Shown here one piece after another: positions 36,350-49,933 of a stretch of DNA of 64,000 nt; position 1 is the first letter of the stretch; each line of letters starts with the position of its first letter. The DNA lies in contig CAVZSQ010000015.1 of NCBI GenBank assembly GCA_963777955.1, forward strand, positions 160,001-224,000. Direction: 5' to 3'. Under the pieces are notes generated by a model. The model was not told the origin of the DNA, did not search any database, and saw only the letters and a list, made by a program, of their open reading frames with translations. A program made the position numbers and the translations under genes. The stretch comes from Calditrichia bacterium (GTDB lineage: Bacteria > Calditrichota > Calditrichia > JAJRVZ01).

Positions 36350-37750
36350 TTATTTATTGGTTATGGACAGTTGTTTTAATTTTCTGCACAACCATTCCCT
36401 GCTGATTCCCGCCTCCTCGGCGGTCTTTTTCATATTCCAGTTATGCTTATTCAGCAGTTCGGTGAAGTATATTCTGTTGAATTCGTCAAGGGCCTTCGGA
36501 TGTTTGCTCTGCAAAATCGCATCGATCTCCCTGTGTCCGGTTATCCGGTTCCGGTTATGAAACTTGCGCTGTTGTTTGAAGCGTAAATCGGATGGATGTA
36601 TTATATTTCCGGTACAGAATACGAAAGCATCTTCAATGATATTCCTTAATTCACGGACATTTCCGGGAAAAGTATAATTTTTCAACTGGGCCAGGGCCGG
36701 ATTAGAAAGCACCAGTTGTTTATTGCGCTGGGTATTGAATTTTTCGAGAAAAAATAAAGCCAGCGGTTCAATATCTTCCGGGTGTTCACGCAGGGGCGGA
36801 ATGGTGATTTTAATGACGTTCAACCGGAAAAAAAGGTCTTCCCGGAATCTGTTACGATGTACGAGTTGTTCGATATCCCGGTTCGAGGCAGCCAGGATCA
36901 TGACATTGACGCGGATGGGGCGTTTACCGCCGATACGATAAATTTCTTTTTCTTCAAGTGCCCGCAGCAACACTCCTTGCAGCGGCATGGGCAGTTCACT
37001 GATTTCGTCCAGGAACAAAACACCTTCATGAGCCTGTTCGAATTTTCCCTGCCGGCTGGCATAGGCTCCGGTGAAAGCTCCCCGCTCATGCCCGAATAAC
37101 TCGCTTTCCAGGAGATTGTCCGGAATCGCAGCGCAGTTGATCGGTATGAAGGGGGCATAATTGCGTTTACTCAGCATATGGATAGTCCGGGCAAACAGGT
37201 CTTTACCGGATCCGCTTTCTCCTTCGATTAAACAGGTCGCATGGGCGTCCTCGGCGATCTTCAATACCTTGCCCATCAGTTCCTTGATTTGCCTGGACAG
37301 GCCGATTATCTGGTAGTCGTTGAATTGCTGGCGCACGGTCTGGCGCAATATCTCATTTTCAATGGTCAGATGCTGGAGTTCTTTCTTTCGTTTAATCAGA
37401 TTTTCAACGCGGATCATCAATTCATCGAGAGTGAATCCCTTGACAGCGAAATCATCGGCACCTGCCTGTATGGTGGCAACCGCATTTTCCACCGACTCAT
37501 ATGCAGTCATAGCCAGAATAAGCGGCCGGTACATTTGATTGCGGGCGCATTTGATTACCGCTAAACCGTCATTTGCTTCGGGAAACATCAGATCGATAAT
37601 CACTGCATCGAATTCATCAGTTTCAATAAAATTAAGAGCTTCCTCTTTGGTATCAGCGGTTATGATTTCGAGCCCCTCCTGTTCCTGCAAATGAAAGCGG
37701 ATACCTTTGAGGATCGTCTCGTCATCATCACCAATAAGAATCCGGTACAT
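36350..37750 (-). CDS. Sigma-54-dependent NtrC-family response regulator (receiver-AAA+-Fis HTH)
   Basis: Receiver DDD...IIDL; Walker A GESGSGKD; ESELFGHERGAFTGA; Walker B LFLDEI; FREDLFFRLNV; PGNVREL; HTH TAEEAGISREWL. Confidence 0.95.
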   Translation of the reverse strand: MYRILIGDDDETILKGIRFHLQEQEGLEIITADTKEEALNFIETDEFDAVIIDLMFPEANDGLAVIKCARNQMYRPLILAMTAYESVENAVATIQAGADDFAVKGFTLDELMIRVENLIKRKKELQHLTIENEILRQTVRQQFNDYQIIGLSRQIKELMGKVLKIAEDAHATCLIEGESGSGKDLFARTIHMLSKRNYAPFIPINCAAIPDNLLESELFGHERGAFTGAYASRQGKFEQAHEGVLFLDEISELPMPLQGVLLRALEEKEIYRIGGKRPIRVNVMILAASNRDIEQLVHRNRFREDLFFRLNVIKITIPPLREHPEDIEPLALFFLEKFNTQRNKQLVLSNPALAQLKNYTFPGNVRELRNIIEDAFVFCTGNIIHPSDLRFKQQRKFHNRNRITGHREIDAILQSKHPKALDEFNRIYFTELLNKHNWNMKKTAEEAGISREWLCRKLKQLSITNK

Positions 37751-37777: not shown

Positions 37778-39160
37778 TTAAACCGGTAAAATGACCTTGA
37801 AGATGGAACCAACACCCGGTTGGCTGTCAACCTGGATTTCACCGCCATGCAGGTTAATGGTTCGTTTTACCATGGCCAGGCCCAGACCGTGCCCCTGGTT
37901 TTTCATAGAAAAAAACGGGCGGAAAATTGCCTGCAATTTTTCCTTAGGGATACCGCAGCCGGAATCGCTGACAATAATATAAATCTTTCCGGACCATTCC
38001 GTGCTGACCGATACTTCGCCCTTCTCCCGGGTTGCTTCCAGCGCATTCACAATGAGATTTTTTAGCGCCATGAATAACAGGCGGGGATCACCGTTAAATA
38101 TAGGTATATTAGGATCATAATTTCTATTTTTTATTACAGAATTGTGGTTGCTGACCTCGTCGATTGCCTTATTGACCAGGGTGTTGATATCAATAGCTTC
38201 CCTGTTCAATTCTGACGCTTTAGCCATATCCAGAGTCCGGCGTACAAAGACTTCAACCTTTTGCGAAGCCGAGAGGATTTCCTCGCTGTATTTACGTAAA
38301 GGACTGTTTTCCTCTAATCGTCGATTCAGTCCGTCCGCCAGCAAGTGGATTCCGGTCAGAGGATTTTTCAGGTCATGAATTATGTACGAGGCAAATTCGC
38401 CGATCATGATCAATCCCTCGTGGGCGCTGCGCTCATTAATCAGATTCACCAATTGAGCGGATAATTGATTCAGCGAATGAATCATCTGGCCGATTTCATC
38501 TTCACCGTAACCGGTGATGGCCTGATCGAATTTACCCTGGCCATAGGCCCGGGCCAGATTAGAAACAGCGGTAATCGGTTTAACCACCCGGCGGGCCAGA
38601 TAATATGAAAGAATTATACTGAAGATAATGGCCAGCAAACCTATACCGGCAATGGTACTGAAGAGTCCGGTAAACAGATTCTCAGCCAGATATTGAATGC
38701 GGACCGTACCGATTCGTCTATTCAATTGCAGCACGGGTACATAGGTTTCCCAGACAGTTTGATCGCGCTCATCGGTCAGACGCATGAGTTGCAGTTTGTC
38801 TGTCTGCATCGCCTGCACAGTTAATGAATCGCTACAGGTAATACCGCGTTGGCCGGGATCATCGGCGGCAATGACTTTTCCGCTGGAATCCAATAATACG
38901 ATGGATAAAATATCCCGGCTTTCCATCATGCTGTCGATCAATAACTGAATCACGGCATAGTCATCGAGCAGGATGGCATTTAAACTGGTATAGGCCAGAG
39001 TTTTAGCTAAACGGAATGCTTTATCTTCTGCCTGTTTGCGTATCGTATTCTGCTGAAATAAATAGATGGCCATGGAAATCAGCATAATAATCAATGCGGT
39101 CAGACCGGCAAAATAAAGGAAAAACTTCGAGCGCAATTTCAGCTTTTGCCAGATATTCAT
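37778..39160 (-). CDS. Sensor histidine kinase (2 TM, periplasmic domain, HAMP)
   Basis: HAMP VVKPI...DEIGQM; H-box IIHDLKNPL; N-box NLIVNALEA; DSGCGI; GHGLGL. Confidence 0.95.
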   Translation of the reverse strand: MNIWQKLKLRSKFFLYFAGLTALIIMLISMAIYLFQQNTIRKQAEDKAFRLAKTLAYTSLNAILLDDYAVIQLLIDSMMESRDILSIVLLDSSGKVIAADDPGQRGITCSDSLTVQAMQTDKLQLMRLTDERDQTVWETYVPVLQLNRRIGTVRIQYLAENLFTGLFSTIAGIGLLAIIFSIILSYYLARRVVKPITAVSNLARAYGQGKFDQAITGYGEDEIGQMIHSLNQLSAQLVNLINERSAHEGLIMIGEFASYIIHDLKNPLTGIHLLADGLNRRLEENSPLRKYSEEILSASQKVEVFVRRTLDMAKASELNREAIDINTLVNKAIDEVSNHNSVIKNRNYDPNIPIFNGDPRLLFMALKNLIVNALEATREKGEVSVSTEWSGKIYIIVSDSGCGIPKEKLQAIFRPFFSMKNQGHGLGLAMVKRTINLHGGEIQVDSQPGVGSIFKVILPV

Positions 39161-39165
39161 GATAT

Positions 39166-40659
39166 TTAATTGTGTTTATTCAATATAACTGAATTAAAGT
39201 CTAAAATTTGATATGGTGACATGGATATATGCTTGATCCTTTCTGAATCTACTGCGAAATGCGGTATAACATGGTCCAGAAAAACTGCCGGCGTCTCGGC
39301 CAGAATTATCGAGACGATTTCTTTGTAGATTTGATTTCGTTCGTTCATGTCATATTTAGTCTCGGCCAGGTCTAATAAACTATCGACCTTGGAATTATAA
39401 TACTTCAGTGAATTCGCCGGAGATTTCGAATGGAACAGTGTCCATAAAAAATACCAGGGATCGCCGATTATATCGCTGTCATAGGCGTCAAAAAACATCT
39501 GTGCACGATCCGACATAATTGCGCCTATATGTTGAGGCCAGTTTTCGGATTCTTCGGTCTGCAGATATATTCCCGAAGTACGCAACTGTGCTTTTAATAG
39601 TTCAATCCAGGTATGGCGGGAACTTTTATTGGATAGCAAGAAAAAGCGGGTAACCAGGTTACCCTGAAATCCAGCTTCCTTGAACATCTTGCGGGCGAGA
39701 GCGAGGTTCTGGCCTGCCTGGACCGCTGTCCCTAAATTATAAATGGGCGGTAGCGGTCCCACGGCTGGAATTGCATTCCCGCGGTTGGAGTTATAAACCA
39801 GCCGAGGAATATTCAAGGCATATAAAATAGCTTTACGTATACGGGGATCGTTAAAAGGGGCCGCCCGATTATTGAAGCCAATAAAAATTACGTTTAAGGG
39901 CTTATTCGACACATAGTCTATCTTGCCGGTCCATTTCAACCGGTCGATGATCGATCCTGAAATAAGATAAACAATATCTACTTCCCTGTCCTCAATCGCA
40001 TAGGCTGATGATTCATAGTTGCTGTACAGAATGAATTCAATCTTTTTTACCTGTGATAATTTCTGCCAGCATTCCGGATTCTGTTTGAGGATTATTCTGG
40101 TACTGCCTTGCTGCTCATGTATAAAATAAGGGCCGGTTCCGTTACGGTTTTTATTTTTTTCTGTCATTGGCGATTGAATCAGCATGACATAAGGCGAACA
40201 CAGCGCATATAAAAACGGAGCAAAATCATTCTTTAACTGTATTGCAAAAGTCAGGGAATCAATCACGGCTACCTTTTTAATCCGGCCCTGCAGTAACCAA
40301 TTACTTTTTTCGCTGCGGTAGCGTTCTATGCTGTAGAGAATATCATCCACACTCAGCTGATGCCCGTCCTGGAAACGGACATCAGGCCTGAGTGTGAAAC
40401 GATAGATATTACTGTCAGGATTGACGGTCCAGCGCATAGCCAGATTGGGTAAAATAGTCTGGTAATCTGAATCCAACCGTAACAGGGTTTCATAAATCTG
40501 GCTTTGGATTTGCACATCATAAACCCCGTCATGATAGACCGGGTCAAATCCGTGTGGCATCTCCTCGATAGCCATGCGGATAGTTTCCACATCTGCGCAT
40601 GTCCAGGCCAGGACACTACTGCTAATAAATAAAAATATTTTCGTTATTTTTACTTTCAC
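39166..40659 (-). CDS. Family-5 (DppA/OppA-like) extracellular solute-binding protein
   Basis: Signal peptide ending in Cys; QIYETLL..PNLAMRW, FTLRPDVRFQDG, GTGPY, PFNDPRIRKAI.YALN; no permease or ATPase nearby. Confidence 0.9.
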   Translation of the reverse strand: MKVKITKIFLFISSSVLAWTCADVETIRMAIEEMPHGFDPVYHDGVYDVQIQSQIYETLLRLDSDYQTILPNLAMRWTVNPDSNIYRFTLRPDVRFQDGHQLSVDDILYSIERYRSEKSNWLLQGRIKKVAVIDSLTFAIQLKNDFAPFLYALCSPYVMLIQSPMTEKNKNRNGTGPYFIHEQQGSTRIILKQNPECWQKLSQVKKIEFILYSNYESSAYAIEDREVDIVYLISGSIIDRLKWTGKIDYVSNKPLNVIFIGFNNRAAPFNDPRIRKAILYALNIPRLVYNSNRGNAIPAVGPLPPIYNLGTAVQAGQNLALARKMFKEAGFQGNLVTRFFLLSNKSSRHTWIELLKAQLRTSGIYLQTEESENWPQHIGAIMSDRAQMFFDAYDSDIIGDPWYFLWTLFHSKSPANSLKYYNSKVDSLLDLAETKYDMNERNQIYKEIVSIILAETPAVFLDHVIPHFAVDSERIKHISMSPYQILDFNSVILNKHN

Positions 40660-40721: not shown

Positions 40722-40841
40722 CTACTCAATCGTACGTGCGGCTATTCTCTGACATTGAGCCAGCACTTGTGGTGTAAAAGTAACGAACATGAAAAGCAGA
40801 ATCCATGCTTTTTTGATCCGGCGAAATAATTTCTTGTACAT
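40722..40841 (-). CDS. Small secreted peptide, candidate precursor: MYKKLFRRIKKAWILLFMFVTFTPQVLAQCQRIAARTIE (39 aa; below the ORF-track cut-off)
   Basis: Translated by hand; AAGGAGGT SD (40846-40853) 4 nt before ATG; basic n-region, hydrophobic h-region, P-Q-V-L-A c-region; co-oriented between the radical SAM and binding-protein genes. Confidence 0.75.
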   Translation of the reverse strand: MYKKLFRRIKKAWILLFMFVTFTPQVLAQCQRIAARTIE

Positions 40842-40877
40842 ATAAACCTCCTTGTTTAGATGGGTTAAAATGTTAAA

Positions 40878-42273
40878 TTAATTTTTGGATATCTTCAGCA
40901 GTTGTCTGCTAAAATTATTTCTAAGTCCGGCTGCAGGTCTGCTGTGCGACCGGTTTGAGAGATTTTTTTTCCAGCCGGAAAATTTCTTATAAATTTTATT
41001 TTCCAGCCGGGCCAGTTTCAGGCGCCAGGCGGTCAATTTTTTCAGACGAAAATCGTAGCCGTCGTACCAGTGATCAGAGGTTAACAGACCCGCCTGCTTA
41101 TATTGTCGGTAAGACAAACTGCCCCGGTACAATTCCAATCGTTCATTGATGGAAATCCTGCAATTCTTACTGTTGAAATATTTTTTCTGGACCATGAATA
41201 ACACGAAGTACTGTTTGATCAGATCGCGCAGGCGGGTATAAGCGTCAGCCAGGATCACCGAGACGATACAATCAATTTTCAACCGCTTTAAAGTGATCAA
41301 GGCCTTCAGATTCTGCCGTACCGTGGTTCCCTTGCCAAAACGGTTCAGTTGATCCTGATCGAAAGACTCAACCCCCAGAAAAACACGTTGTAAACCTGAT
41401 CTTTTAAGATGTATCAAGACCTGGCGATCGATTGAATCCACCCGGCACATCATTTCAAAACTGACCGACAGGTTCCGCCGGGCCAGTTCGGCGGCCAGAA
41501 TTTCGGCACGTTGACGGTTGTGTACGCCGCGGGTTAAGAAATTATCATCATTCAGAATGAAATAGGTGCAGCGATAAGTTCTGGCCAGGTGCTCCAGTTC
41601 ATCTACAAATTTTGCGATGGAACGGCTGCGCCATTTTTTACCCGGACTGCTGGTGTAAAAAGAATTGATGTCGCAAAATGAACAATTCCCCCAGCAACCC
41701 CGCGAAGCATAAACCCGCAGGTGACCTGTTTTTTTAATCAGCCTGTCGGCATATTTGCGATCGACCATGGGCAGACTGTCCAGATCGTAAATAAGGGGCC
41801 GGGGAGGATTATGCCGCAACTGCCCATTAAGACTGATATGAAATTCCCGGAATCCCGGTCAGAGGTTTATGGCCCCGACCTGCAAGGGAATACATCAAGT
41901 CCAGCAGGGTATACTCCCCTTCTCCACGTACAATAAAATCGATGGCAGGTACATTTTTTAAAAGTTCATCGGCATGAAAAGTTGGGAAATATCCACCAGC
42001 TAGCACAGGTCCGCTGAAACCGGTCTGTTTTATCTGTTGAATCAAGGACAGCCCCTGCTCTTTAGTCTGATCCAGCATGGAAATCCCAATAGATTTTGGT
42101 TGTATGTGACGCATTTTTTGTATGACAGCCGGGATATCCAGATCTTCCAGTACCATATCCAAGGTGTCAACCTTGAAACCGTATTGAGTAAGAAAGGCCT
42201 TCAAACTGGCAATACCCAGATGTTCACTGATAACATCGCTCTTAACACCAGGATGAATTAACAAGAGATCCAT
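40878..42273 (-). CDS. Cobalamin-binding radical SAM enzyme (class B type), split by a frameshift at ~41826
   Basis: B12-binding N-domain (HLGIASLKAFL, IGIS, AGGYFPT, FIVRGEGE); rSAM domain SRGCWGNCSFC (CxxxCxxC), DDNF, CRVD, FLGVES; start at ATG 42273 after AGAGGG. Confidence 0.9.
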
Positions 42274-42304
42274 AATAATCCCTCTAAAAGATGAAAAATA
42301 CATA

Positions 42305-42320
42305 TGCCATATTCATGCCA
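42305..42320 (-). promoter_or_regulatory. Sigma-54 (-24/-12) promoter of the radical SAM operon
   Basis: Minus strand TGGCATGAATATGGCA, GG-N10-GC, versus consensus TGGCACG-N4-TTGC; predicted +1 ~42294, 21 nt before the ATG. Confidence 0.75.
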
Positions 42321-42403: not shown

Positions 42404-42489
42404 AGTGTGAACGATCGATCAAAAAAATTGACCGATCGTTCACACTCGGTATGAACAATCGGTCAAAAAATGAGAACAATCGTTCACAC
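42404..42489. promoter_or_regulatory. Four phased imperfect palindromes (consensus GTGTGAAC-N4-GTTCACAC), candidate enhancer sites
   Basis: gtgtgaacgatcgatca, ttgaccgatcgttcacac, gtatgaacaatcggtca, tgagaacaatcgttcacac; centres at 42413, 42434, 42457, 42478 (21/23/21 bp apart). Confidence 0.7.
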
Positions 42490-42828: not shown

Positions 42829-42850
42829 AGTGTGAACTTTTGTTCACACT
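42829..42850. repeat. Perfect palindrome AGTGTGAAC-TTTT-GTTCACACT (fifth copy of the motif)
   Basis: Direct reading; same half-sites as 42404-42489. Confidence 0.7.
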
Positions 42851-47667: not shown

Positions 47668-49933
47668 TCAGAGCAGGGCTTTCAATATTTTCTGTGCGCT
47701 GGCTTTTCCATACAACCCCGCTTCAAGCGGCGGTCCGATACAGGAAGGACAGCCATTCTCACAACTGCAGCTGCCGATGTGATCGAAGACGGTCTGGAAG
47801 ATCAGGTTATCCAGATTATAGACTTTTTTACTCAGTCCCACTCCACCCGGATACTTATCATAAACATAAATAGTCGGCTTGTTGGAGAATGGCGAACGAA
47901 CCATAGGTACCACGCTGATATCGTTCCGGTCGCACATAATATACAATGGTATCAGGTTTTGCAGAACATAAGCGATACCCTTAATGCCCTCCCCGATCAC
48001 CGATTCCTGAAAGTAGGGATCGGAGAACAGTTGTTCGGGAAATTCAAACCAGGCTGAGGTGGAATGCATTTCCATTTCCGGCAGAAAAATTCTACCCATC
48101 CCGACGTTCTCATGCGTAAAGAATTTTACTTTTTTAAAAGAGGTGGCCACGGTAGTAACCGCAACTTCACCCAGACATTTTTTATAGCGCCGGGCTATCA
48201 ACTCCTCCTGATCAACCTGCAATACTTTAAGATCGGTTTTGGCAATTGCATCCGTATAATAATCGCATTCGGTCTCGCTGACATAGGCTTTCTTGCCTTC
48301 CCAGTCCAGTTCGTTCACCTGGAACTGCCGGCTTTCATGCAGGTAGATTGCTTCCTTGTGGACTAACAGCGGAGCAGAAAACAGATCCACTTCACCAATG
48401 ATCCGGTTATTATCTGATTGATTGATGATGACCACATTATTGGGATTGGCATTGCGCAGGCTTACTTCATCCGCAGGAAAAACTTCCTGCATCCAGAAAT
48501 ATTTGCCCGTCTGTTTCTCTCAGGATGCGTTCATCACGGAGATACTGCAATAGTTTCTGGGTGGCATCGGTACCAAAATGTTCCTCGGTGGTAAACGGCA
48601 GTTCGAAGGCGGCACATTTAAGATGACTCATCATCACCAGCAAATTATTGGCATCGATATTGGCGGTTTCGGGATTTTTACCAAAAAAATAGGAGGGGTG
48701 CTCAATAATGTACTGATCCAGGGGTGCGCTGCTGGCCACCATTATTGAGACTGAAGTAGTCTGACGCCTTCCGGCTCGTCCGGCCTGTTGCCAGGTACTG
48801 GCAATACTGCCCGGATATCCGGATAGTATCGATAAATCAAGTTGACCGATATCGATGCCCAGTTCCAGGGCATTGGTACTGACGACTACCTGGATACTGC
48901 CATCGCGTAATCCGCGTTCGATCTCCCTGCGTTCATTGGGCAGGTAACCGCCGCGATAACCCCGGATTTTATTGGGTTCAATTTTCAAGGATTTGGCAAC
49001 TTCCTTAAGATAGGTTACCAGAATTTCAACATTAAGCCTGCTGCGGGCAAAGACGATGGACTGTATGCCTGTCGGCAGGAACAGCCGGACTATTTTTCTT
49101 ATTTCATTCAGTACCGAATTGCGTATGCCCAATTCCTTATTTACCACGGGGGGATTATAAAAAATAAAATGTCTTTCCCCGCTGGGAGCGCCGTTTTCAT
49201 CCACAAGTTCCACCGGTGCTTCGATAACTTTCGCAGTTATTTCTTCCGGATTGGCAATAGTAGCAGAGCAACAGATAAAGACGGGATGACTGCCATAGAA
49301 TTCACAGATACGCTTCAACCGCCGCAGCACATTGGCCAGATGGCTGCCGAAAATACCTTTATAGGAATGTATTTCATCGATGACGATATATTTTAAATTC
49401 TCAAACAATTTGATCCACAAGGTATGATGAGGCAATATTCCCTGATGCAGCATATCGGGATTGGTCACGACTATATGCCCGGCCGAGCGGATGGTCCGGC
49501 GCACATCTGCCGGTGTATCTCCATCGAAGGTATAGCACAGAATGCGCTCCCCTAATCTTTCGATCAGATCGTTTAATTCATGCACCTGATCCTGGGCCAG
49601 GGCTTTGGTCGGAAACAGATACAGCGATCTTTGTTCGGGATTTTTCAGCAAATTGCACAGAACGGGCAGATTATAGGTCAGGGTCTTGCCCGAAGCGGTG
49701 GGGGTGACGACCACAACATTCTTACCCTGCTGAATTTTCTCAAAAGTCAGGACCTGATGCCGGTAAAGTGCAGAAATTCCACTTTGTTTCAAAACCTGAA
49801 TAACCTTATCCGGAATAGAGTCCGGAAAGGGGGCATAAACGGCTGACTGGGCGGGAATAGTTTTCCAGGAAGTTACATTGCGTGTGAATTCAGGTTTGGA
49901 GCCTAAATATTCAATTAATTGGGCAAGGTTCAT
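47668..49933 (-). CDS. YprA/MrfA-like DEAH helicase with DUF1998, frameshifted at ~48507
   Basis: TPTASGKT, PTKALAQDQ, DEIH, SAT, TNALELGIDIG, QQAGRAGRR; C-terminal YDKYPGGVG and CSCENGCPSC. Confidence 0.92.

Follow-up and report, generated by a model that had tools for sequence, protein, structure and literature searches.

A short gene of Calditrichota, lying between genes for a B12-binding radical SAM (rSAM) enzyme and a family-5 solute-binding lipoprotein (SBP), probably codes for the precursor to an autoinducing peptide that is matured by the rSAM enzyme, expressed from a five-gene sigma54 operon and sensed by an exchangeable SBP. We consider the signal-precursor role of the 39-aa peptide quite likely, and, granted that role, give the rSAM enzyme somewhat better than even prospects of acting on it.

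The peptide gene and its cassette

The window, a 64,000-nucleotide stretch of a Calditrichia bacterium contig, carries on its minus strand a B12 rSAM gene (read in two frames), the 39-aa ORF, an SBP_bac_5 gene, an sCache-HAMP kinase gene and a sigma54 regulator gene (Table 1). A sequence-only reading of this DNA had tied the ORF, as a precursor-like gene, to the rSAM, SBP and kinase genes, and had described a textbook Shine-Dalgarno (SD) sequence 4 nt upstream. Synteny agrees with the former and the site AAGGAGGT at 40853-40846 with the latter. GGAGG was found upstream of just 8 of the 2544 ATG-started ORFs of 38-40 aa in the genome; the 39-aa ORF thus stands out beyond chance. As a check, the same reading had named an equivalent ORF beside homologous rSAM genes. 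Indeed, in 17 of 17 phylum genomes with both genes on one stretch, and at 12 of 12 metagenome loci with both genes (including three that duplicate genome loci), the rSAM and SBP genes flank a 38-40-aa homologue with a GGAG-type SD. This order was not seen in G055 and G056, which have rearranged forms, in G036, where a scaffold gap intervenes, or at contig ends. Of 86 genomes of the phylum, 23 carry an orthologue of the rSAM gene and 19 an SBP match below 1e-100; the range of the cassette is at least as wide as the matches listed.

Profile searches enlarged the set to 61 distinct peptides, 58 of which are 39 aa long. Across nine independent homologue pairs pN/pS was 0.38, with 93, 50 and 142 mismatches at codon positions 1, 2 and 3, indicating that the peptide is under purifying selection. 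The ORF, whole or in its 3' part, was gap-free in three contigs of close relatives (three public runs), and its stop codon was bridged by at least 31 nt in two of them, which argues against the earlier worry that the TAG at 40722 arises from an indel in a longer gene. Collectively, these comparisons show the 39-aa ORF to be a genuine gene, conserved as part of a Calditrichota cassette.

The ORF had been called unannotated, which is correct for the ORF track then used; publicly, the same 39-aa protein has been deposited (P0005), and its named relatives are labelled 'hypothetical protein'. Pfam and NCBIfam searches of 28 peptides gave no credible match. The ESM Atlas returned no usable match for the peptide and generic B12-rSAM clusters alone for the enzyme, and no paralogous peptide was found in G000 (next E 0.08). 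A literature search, mostly of open-access papers, found no account of the cassette; the available text of PMC13635244 mentions Calditrichota just in passing.

Table 1. Positions of the cassette genes, peptide segments and regulatory sites in the window
Feature	Position	Strand	Remarks
39-aa precursor peptide gene	40722..40841	-	ATG to TAG; 61 distinct homologues, pN/pS 0.38
Residues 1-12, basic amphipathic helix (putative leader or membrane anchor)	40806..40841	-	column charges, 105-degree hydropathy periodicity
Residues 13-28, hydrophobic stretch	40758..40805	-	Phe17 58/61, Ser/Thr21 60/61, small residue 28 in 51/61
Residues 29-39, putative mature signal	40725..40757	-	Arg/Lys36 45/61, Ile/Leu/Val38 57/61
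Shine-Dalgarno site AAGGAGGT	40846..40853	-	4 nt 5' of ATG; GGAG-type site 5' of homologues too
B12-binding radical SAM gene	40878..42273	-	frame interrupted in this assembly by a single extra base near 41831-41833; PF02310 and PF04055 on two pieces
Family-5 solute-binding lipoprotein (SBP), putative receptor	39166..40659	-	conserved Cys21; cassette without permease genes
sCache-HAMP histidine kinase	37778..39160	-	
Sigma54-dependent (NtrC/AtoC-type) response regulator	36350..37750	-	
Sigma54-type -24/-12 promoter	42304..42320	-	GG-N10-GC in 19/23 upstream regions, relaxed form in 22/23
Four palindromic enhancer-like sites	42406..42488	.	21-23 bp apart; fifth at 42831-42848

Peptide anatomy and the radical SAM enzyme

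The first 28 residues had been read as a Sec signal with six Lys/Arg and a -3/-1 motif ahead of a cut at 28|29. The count of basic residues agrees, and residue 28 is small (Ala, Ser, Gly or Thr) in most homologues, but the -3/-1 rule fits just 32 of the 61 peptides and fails in 29. In 26 of the 61, position 26 carries an aromatic residue, His or Asn. A canonical signal peptidase (SPase) I signal therefore appears not to be general, and we give a cut at 28|29 an even chance. Other details proposed for the window's peptide did not extend to the family: Gln29, suggested to form pyroglutamate, occurs in 5 of 61 peptides, and Cys, suggested as a modification target, at position 30 in three and anywhere in seven, leaving the L-A-Q-C lipobox (SPase II) with no conserved Cys. 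Among the four residue types put forward as enzyme targets, Gln and Cys are thus sporadic, whereas Arg and Ile have counterparts in the conserved Arg/Lys36 and Ile/Leu/Val38. Residues 29-34 showed a pN/pS of 0.23, which is purifying and not positive selection. Trp was present in three peptides, at position 31 only, and absent from 29-30 and 32-39.

The near-invariant residue 21 could serve as an agr/fsr-type nucleophile (Ser/Thr in 60 peptides, compared to Cys in 7). It might then close an AgrD/FsrD-like lactone with residue 26 or 27, the tail being removed. Residue 27 is mostly hydrophobic, and the amphipathic N-terminal helix recalls the AgrD layout (described in the available text of PMC9388083). 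Against a lactone, AgrB was over the cut-off in none of five cassette genomes searched, in a search whose control set also gave no positive over the cut-off, and peptide pairs identical at residues 21-28 have SBP identities ranging from 58 to 82%. The AgrD model matched none of 28 peptides. We consider a lactone highly improbable.

The rSAM gene is a single ORF in homologues and encodes a CxxxCxxC radical SAM domain. The extra base that breaks it in the window was absent in four of four covering contigs, all from related strains; unless the base was introduced in assembly, the window's strain would be a non-producer. A DEAD/DEAH-helicase-like gene (family assigned by eye) at 47668-49933 of the window also seems to be broken up, with overlapping ORFs of 488 and 274 aa that another assembly indel may have created. 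Elsewhere, locus L172 (G004:C11, 6573-11258) has intact rSAM, peptide and regulator genes, an SBP gene with many stops and a short kinase ORF; the SBP of G002 is split and an rSAM match in G051 contains a TGA. Such damage may reflect repeated decay, or assembly errors.

The structures nearest to the rSAM model (pLDDT 71) were OxsB, TsrM, CysS, MgmA and TokK. OxsB, a small-molecule enzyme, was the top match in both structure and sequence, and TsrM and MgmA are peptide or protein methylases. No NCBIfam rSAM model scored over its cut-off, the best match, BchE, being far below. The highest scores for named maturase families (TIGR03975, ApyD and others) were 106 and 100 bits, where the cut-offs are 282 and 750. 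The rSAM clade has no RRE domain; a 653-aa B12 rSAM protein that is 31% identical to the clade (P0244) has a C-terminal PqqD/RRE domain.

The peptide gene moves with the rSAM gene: the two are co-duplicated in G048, the peptide gene is in tandem beside rSAM in G056, and it lies by an rSAM gene without an SBP gene in G055. At the G048 locus (L180, G048:C82, 4021-7500) the two copies of rSAM share 68% identity, and the first of the peptides has 36 aa and a changed tail. At L245 (G056:C154) and L232 (G055:C405) the order is rSAM, CheY-like, peptide (tandem in G056), CheY-like, and the SBP-kinase-regulator block of G056 is on a separate contig.

The exchangeable block and the putative receptor and regulon

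We compared the cassettes of two congeneric genomes, G025 and G031, in 100-nt windows. DNA identity was 44-66% from mid-peptide to about SBP residue 400, compared to 75-98% in the flanks, which comprise the promoter, rSAM, the first 16 peptide codons, the SBP end and the kinase, and in which one upstream window was at 63%. Residues 30-400 of the two SBPs were 49% identical; the rSAM enzymes were 92% identical, the kinases 95%, their periplasmic domains 98%, and an unrelated family-5 SBP taken for comparison 84%. The block boundaries were the same in a third allele, L114. This pattern indicates that the variable peptide-SBP block is pherotype-like. It resembles the comQXP polymorphism (as described in the available text of PMC6334282), yet the enzyme and kinase are constant here.

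The exchange also bears on a rival explanation that we hold to be unlikely. The peptide could be an uncleaved small membrane protein, on the model of MgrB and SafA, that tunes the SBP-kinase complex while the rSAM enzyme makes a small-molecule or lipid signal. Helical periodicity of 90-105 degrees along the whole peptide, the fixed length and a small-residue face made by residues 17, 21, 24 and 28 would suit such a protein, and OxsB and BchE are both small-molecule enzymes. In G025 and G031, by contrast, the transmembrane and periplasmic parts of the kinase are 88-100% identical while peptide residues 18-34 are replaced, and rSAM enzymes so alike should yield the same molecule, yet the SBPs have diverged. 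In addition, the peptide gene duplicates with rSAM, not with the kinase gene.

Returning to the signal-precursor reading, two sharing patterns bear on where the signal lies. Residues 17-28 are common to G025 and L114, whose SBPs are 60% identical, and residues 35-39 to G025 and G031, whose SBPs are at 49%. Only a segment including residues 29-34 therefore explains both. Among 11 close pairs, SBP identity correlated with differences in residues 29-39 (rho -0.83) and not with those in residues 1-16 (rho -0.15) or 17-28 (-0.24); for residues 35-39 the correlation was weaker (-0.42, p 0.2). These were the closest pairs, picked after an analysis of 230 pairs in which partial correlations with SBP identity were weak for all segments (0.04-0.21) and singled out none; they share members, form about four clusters and are non-independent, so that the correlation is a lead and not proof. 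Moreover, since peptide and SBP adjoin, a single recombination event could swap both without co-function. Read in this way, the correlation supports the 11-residue core (29-39) proposed by the sequence-only reading as plausible.

A shorter active species, a Phr-like C-terminal pentapeptide (residues 35-39), would match a basic residue at -4 from the C-terminus (45 of 61 peptides), which the available text of PMC3601965 gives for all B. subtilis Phr peptides, the basic-hydrophobic-C-terminal precursor layout (PMC10075063, in its available part) and an SBP fold common to OppA with PhrE peptide (8are). But the last five residues are the same in G025 and G031, whose SBPs differ by half, differences in residues 35-39 predict SBP identity poorly, and the cassette has no TPR receptor, nor was one found in the flanks. 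This makes the pentapeptide improbable in our judgement.

With the enzyme unchanged between G025 and G031 and only residues 1-17 and 35-39 near-constant, recognition and modification target are most simply placed in those residues. Co-variation of rSAM segments with residues 35-39 was inconsistent. Our best guess for the chemistry, taken from the clavusporin case (PMC10849626), is C-methylation at residue 38 or 36.

The SBP model (pLDDT 88) matched peptide- and metal-binding family-5 proteins, and its fold matches included AapF with a signalling molecule bound as well as the OppA complex. Complex prediction for SBP residues 22-497 with peptide residues 10-39 scored 0.02 against a mark of 0.32, which counts neither for nor against binding. 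SBP-gated kinases are known, and CBP-ChiS is a case with a family-5 SBP (PMC8050422, available text). Across 31 flanking regions, no permease, exporter or protease was conserved.

Upstream of the cassette, a TGAAC-N4-GTTCA palindrome occurred at least once in 22 of 23 regions, in arrays often spaced 21 bp. An initial sigma54 pattern matched 4 of the 23 regions and was relaxed after inspection; three further regions beyond the 19 with GG-N10-GC have a relaxed -12 element. L124 was left out of this set (wrong region taken). In whole genomes, the tandem enhancer pattern was found in 21 of 86 phylum genomes and not in a reversed control. It was present in 18 of 26 cassette-bearing genomes compared to 3 of 60 others; the strict form missed eight of the 26, G000 among them. 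Matches at the cassette are circular because the pattern was built from cassette promoters, and the comparison of genomes is thus partly so. From these sites we infer that the cognate regulator would bind the enhancers, with possible positive feedback on its own promoter.

Eight of 29 non-cassette enhancer clusters examined precede a single-domain CheY-like gene, and many others have a lipoprotein, T9SS-tailed protein, peptidase or regulator gene close by (from Pfam searches of 36 selected proteins), the targets being assigned by proximity only. In G000 tandem sites were found at the cassette alone, and single sites numbered 16 compared to 16-24 in shuffles, giving no sign of a wider regulon there. 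G007 has eleven enhancer clusters (L175, L182, L207-L215), many before exported-protein genes, and its putative regulon is much larger than that of its relatives. At L216 (G004:C12, 3338-4475) an enhancer pair and a sigma54-like site lie 5' of a gene for a 318-aa tyrosine integrase, the N-terminus of which we take to be integron-type. A recurring 350-440-aa lipoprotein type is found by enhancer sites at L217, L219, L225, L235, L237 and L238, in several cases with a large exported protein next. In the same-genus genome G001 (92% complete), an enhancer pair directly precedes the regulator gene (L234, G001:C187, 1044-2700) and no rSAM or SBP orthologues were found, as if the genes that make and sense the signal had been deleted.

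These enhancer positions bear on a further alternative, a clavusporin-like RiPP that serves externally as an antimicrobial or surfactant, for which the SBP would provide immunity or recapture and the two-component system only regulation. Immunity proteins, too, co-vary with their products, and the precursor genes occur in tandem copies. B12 rSAM enzymes are also reported, in the available text of PMC10849626, to C-methylate 39-mer RiPP precursors (clavusporin). The cassette, however, has no transporter or peptidase gene, and enhancers are found as well in front of genes for unrelated exported proteins and regulators, which suits a signal over an end product; we therefore rate an external RiPP as very improbable.

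Proposed circuit and comparison with known systems

The gene order, its conservation, the promoter with its enhancer array and the swapped block (the second half of the peptide and most of the SBP) were read directly from sequence, and from them we infer the export, cleavage, chemistry and SBP binding of the peptide. In the circuit we favour, the cytoplasmic B12 rSAM enzyme would bind the conserved N-terminal part and modify the peptide while it is still inside the cell; C-methylation, at the aliphatic residue 38 or on the long side chain at 36, is the most likely change. Export would follow, a housekeeping protease (SPase I or other) would cut the precursor near 28|29, and the resulting ~11-mer would bind the SBP lipoprotein, in which specificity would reside. 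The conserved C-terminal part of the SBP may then pass the signal to the sCache domain of the kinase, which would phosphorylate the sigma54 activator. Bound to the enhancer array, the activator would re-induce the operon together with a CheY-like gene and exported-protein genes. The cassette thus looks like a self-activating peptide signalling circuit. This reading is weakened by the lack of an exporter or protease gene in the cassette and of an RRE in the rSAM clade, by OxsB as top match, by the frequent failure of the -3/-1 rule, by the purifying selection on residues 29-34 and by the position of the most invariant residues (17 and 21) outside the proposed core.

Tentatively, the cassette may represent a new class of diderm quorum-sensing signal, in which a ribosomal peptide is matured by a B12 rSAM enzyme, an exchangeable SBP gives pherotype specificity to a constant kinase, and the output is a sigma54 regulon of exported proteins. 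If so, the signal would be made only with B12 present and oxygen absent, and versions of the design with other peptides, such as the G096 cassette, would exist outside Calditrichota. Specificity would be placed in a swappable binding protein, and many natural peptide variants are available, more than 25 with their SBP, so that synthetic 11-mers and purified SBPs could be used to probe ligand-receptor co-evolution. A defined candidate substrate would also be at hand for a B12 radical SAM clade that is uncharacterised.

The G096 cassette (L251, G096:C7, 903-3947, minus strand) encodes an rSAM 37% identical to the window's, a 28-aa ORF (start 2573, strong SD), a family-5 SBP and a HAMP kinase. 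Its peptide is unrelated to that of the window, no enhancer or sigma54 match was found, and it is the single example outside the phylum set. Related rSAMs are labelled KSB1 and Gemmatimonadota. Searches for the sister-clade rSAM gave 0/151 in the phylum of G086, 0/7 in that of G091 and 0/33 in that of G088; in the phylum of G296 (401 genomes) there were four more distant rSAM matches, none beside a peptide or SBP gene, and plasmids gave matches of ~31-35% only.

Among known systems, those that pass a ligand from an SBP to a Cache-type kinase domain (LuxP-LuxQ, CBP-ChiS and AioX-AioS; CBP is also an SBP_bac_5 protein, PMC8050422) resemble the sensing half, but in the sources' available text their ligands are small molecules or sugars and not a co-encoded variable peptide. 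In the B12-rSAM RiPP systems of clavusporin (MpcB) and polytheonamide (PoyC), the enzyme likewise adjoins a short precursor (PMC10849626, available part); here there is no RRE partner, peptidase or transporter. Peptides modified by rSAM enzymes, the SCIFF ranthipeptides, have been reported in clostridial quorum sensing (listed in PMC8326336), although their chemistry, thioether formation on Cys, has no counterpart here. With Rap-Phr/RRNPP systems the cassette shares the basic-hydrophobic-C-terminal layout and a family-5 SBP that would handle the peptide, and the -4 residue is basic in 45 of its 61 peptides. Unlike them, it has a modifying enzyme and neither a TPR receptor nor a permease, and sensing appears to be extracytoplasmic, through the kinase.

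Staphylococcal agrBDCA resembles the proposed circuit as an autoinducing operon of four functions whose precursor has an amphipathic leader (PMC9388083, available text), and it too has allele groups, but no AgrB (five genomes and flanks searched), conserved Cys or acidic tail was found here, and the kinase and regulator classes differ. Bacillus ComQXPA has the same order of enzyme, precursor, receptor and regulator on one strand, and a polymorphic block over peptide and receptor that gives pherotypes (available text of PMC4008528 and PMC6334282). It differs in that the enzyme here is a B12 rSAM (PF02310 and PF04055), lying outside the variable block, and not the isoprenyl transferase ComQ; the Trp within the last 5-10 precursor residues has no counterpart; and specificity would reside in a separate SBP, not in the kinase, with sigma54 output in a diderm host. 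Enzyme-modified peptide pheromones with pherotypes are known mainly from Gram-positives; in its available text, a comQXPA census records none outside Firmicutes (PMC4008528). Together, these comparisons suggest that a diderm phylum arrived at pherotype logic by way of unrelated components, and that the Calditrichota system would work like comQXPA or agr while being a member of neither.
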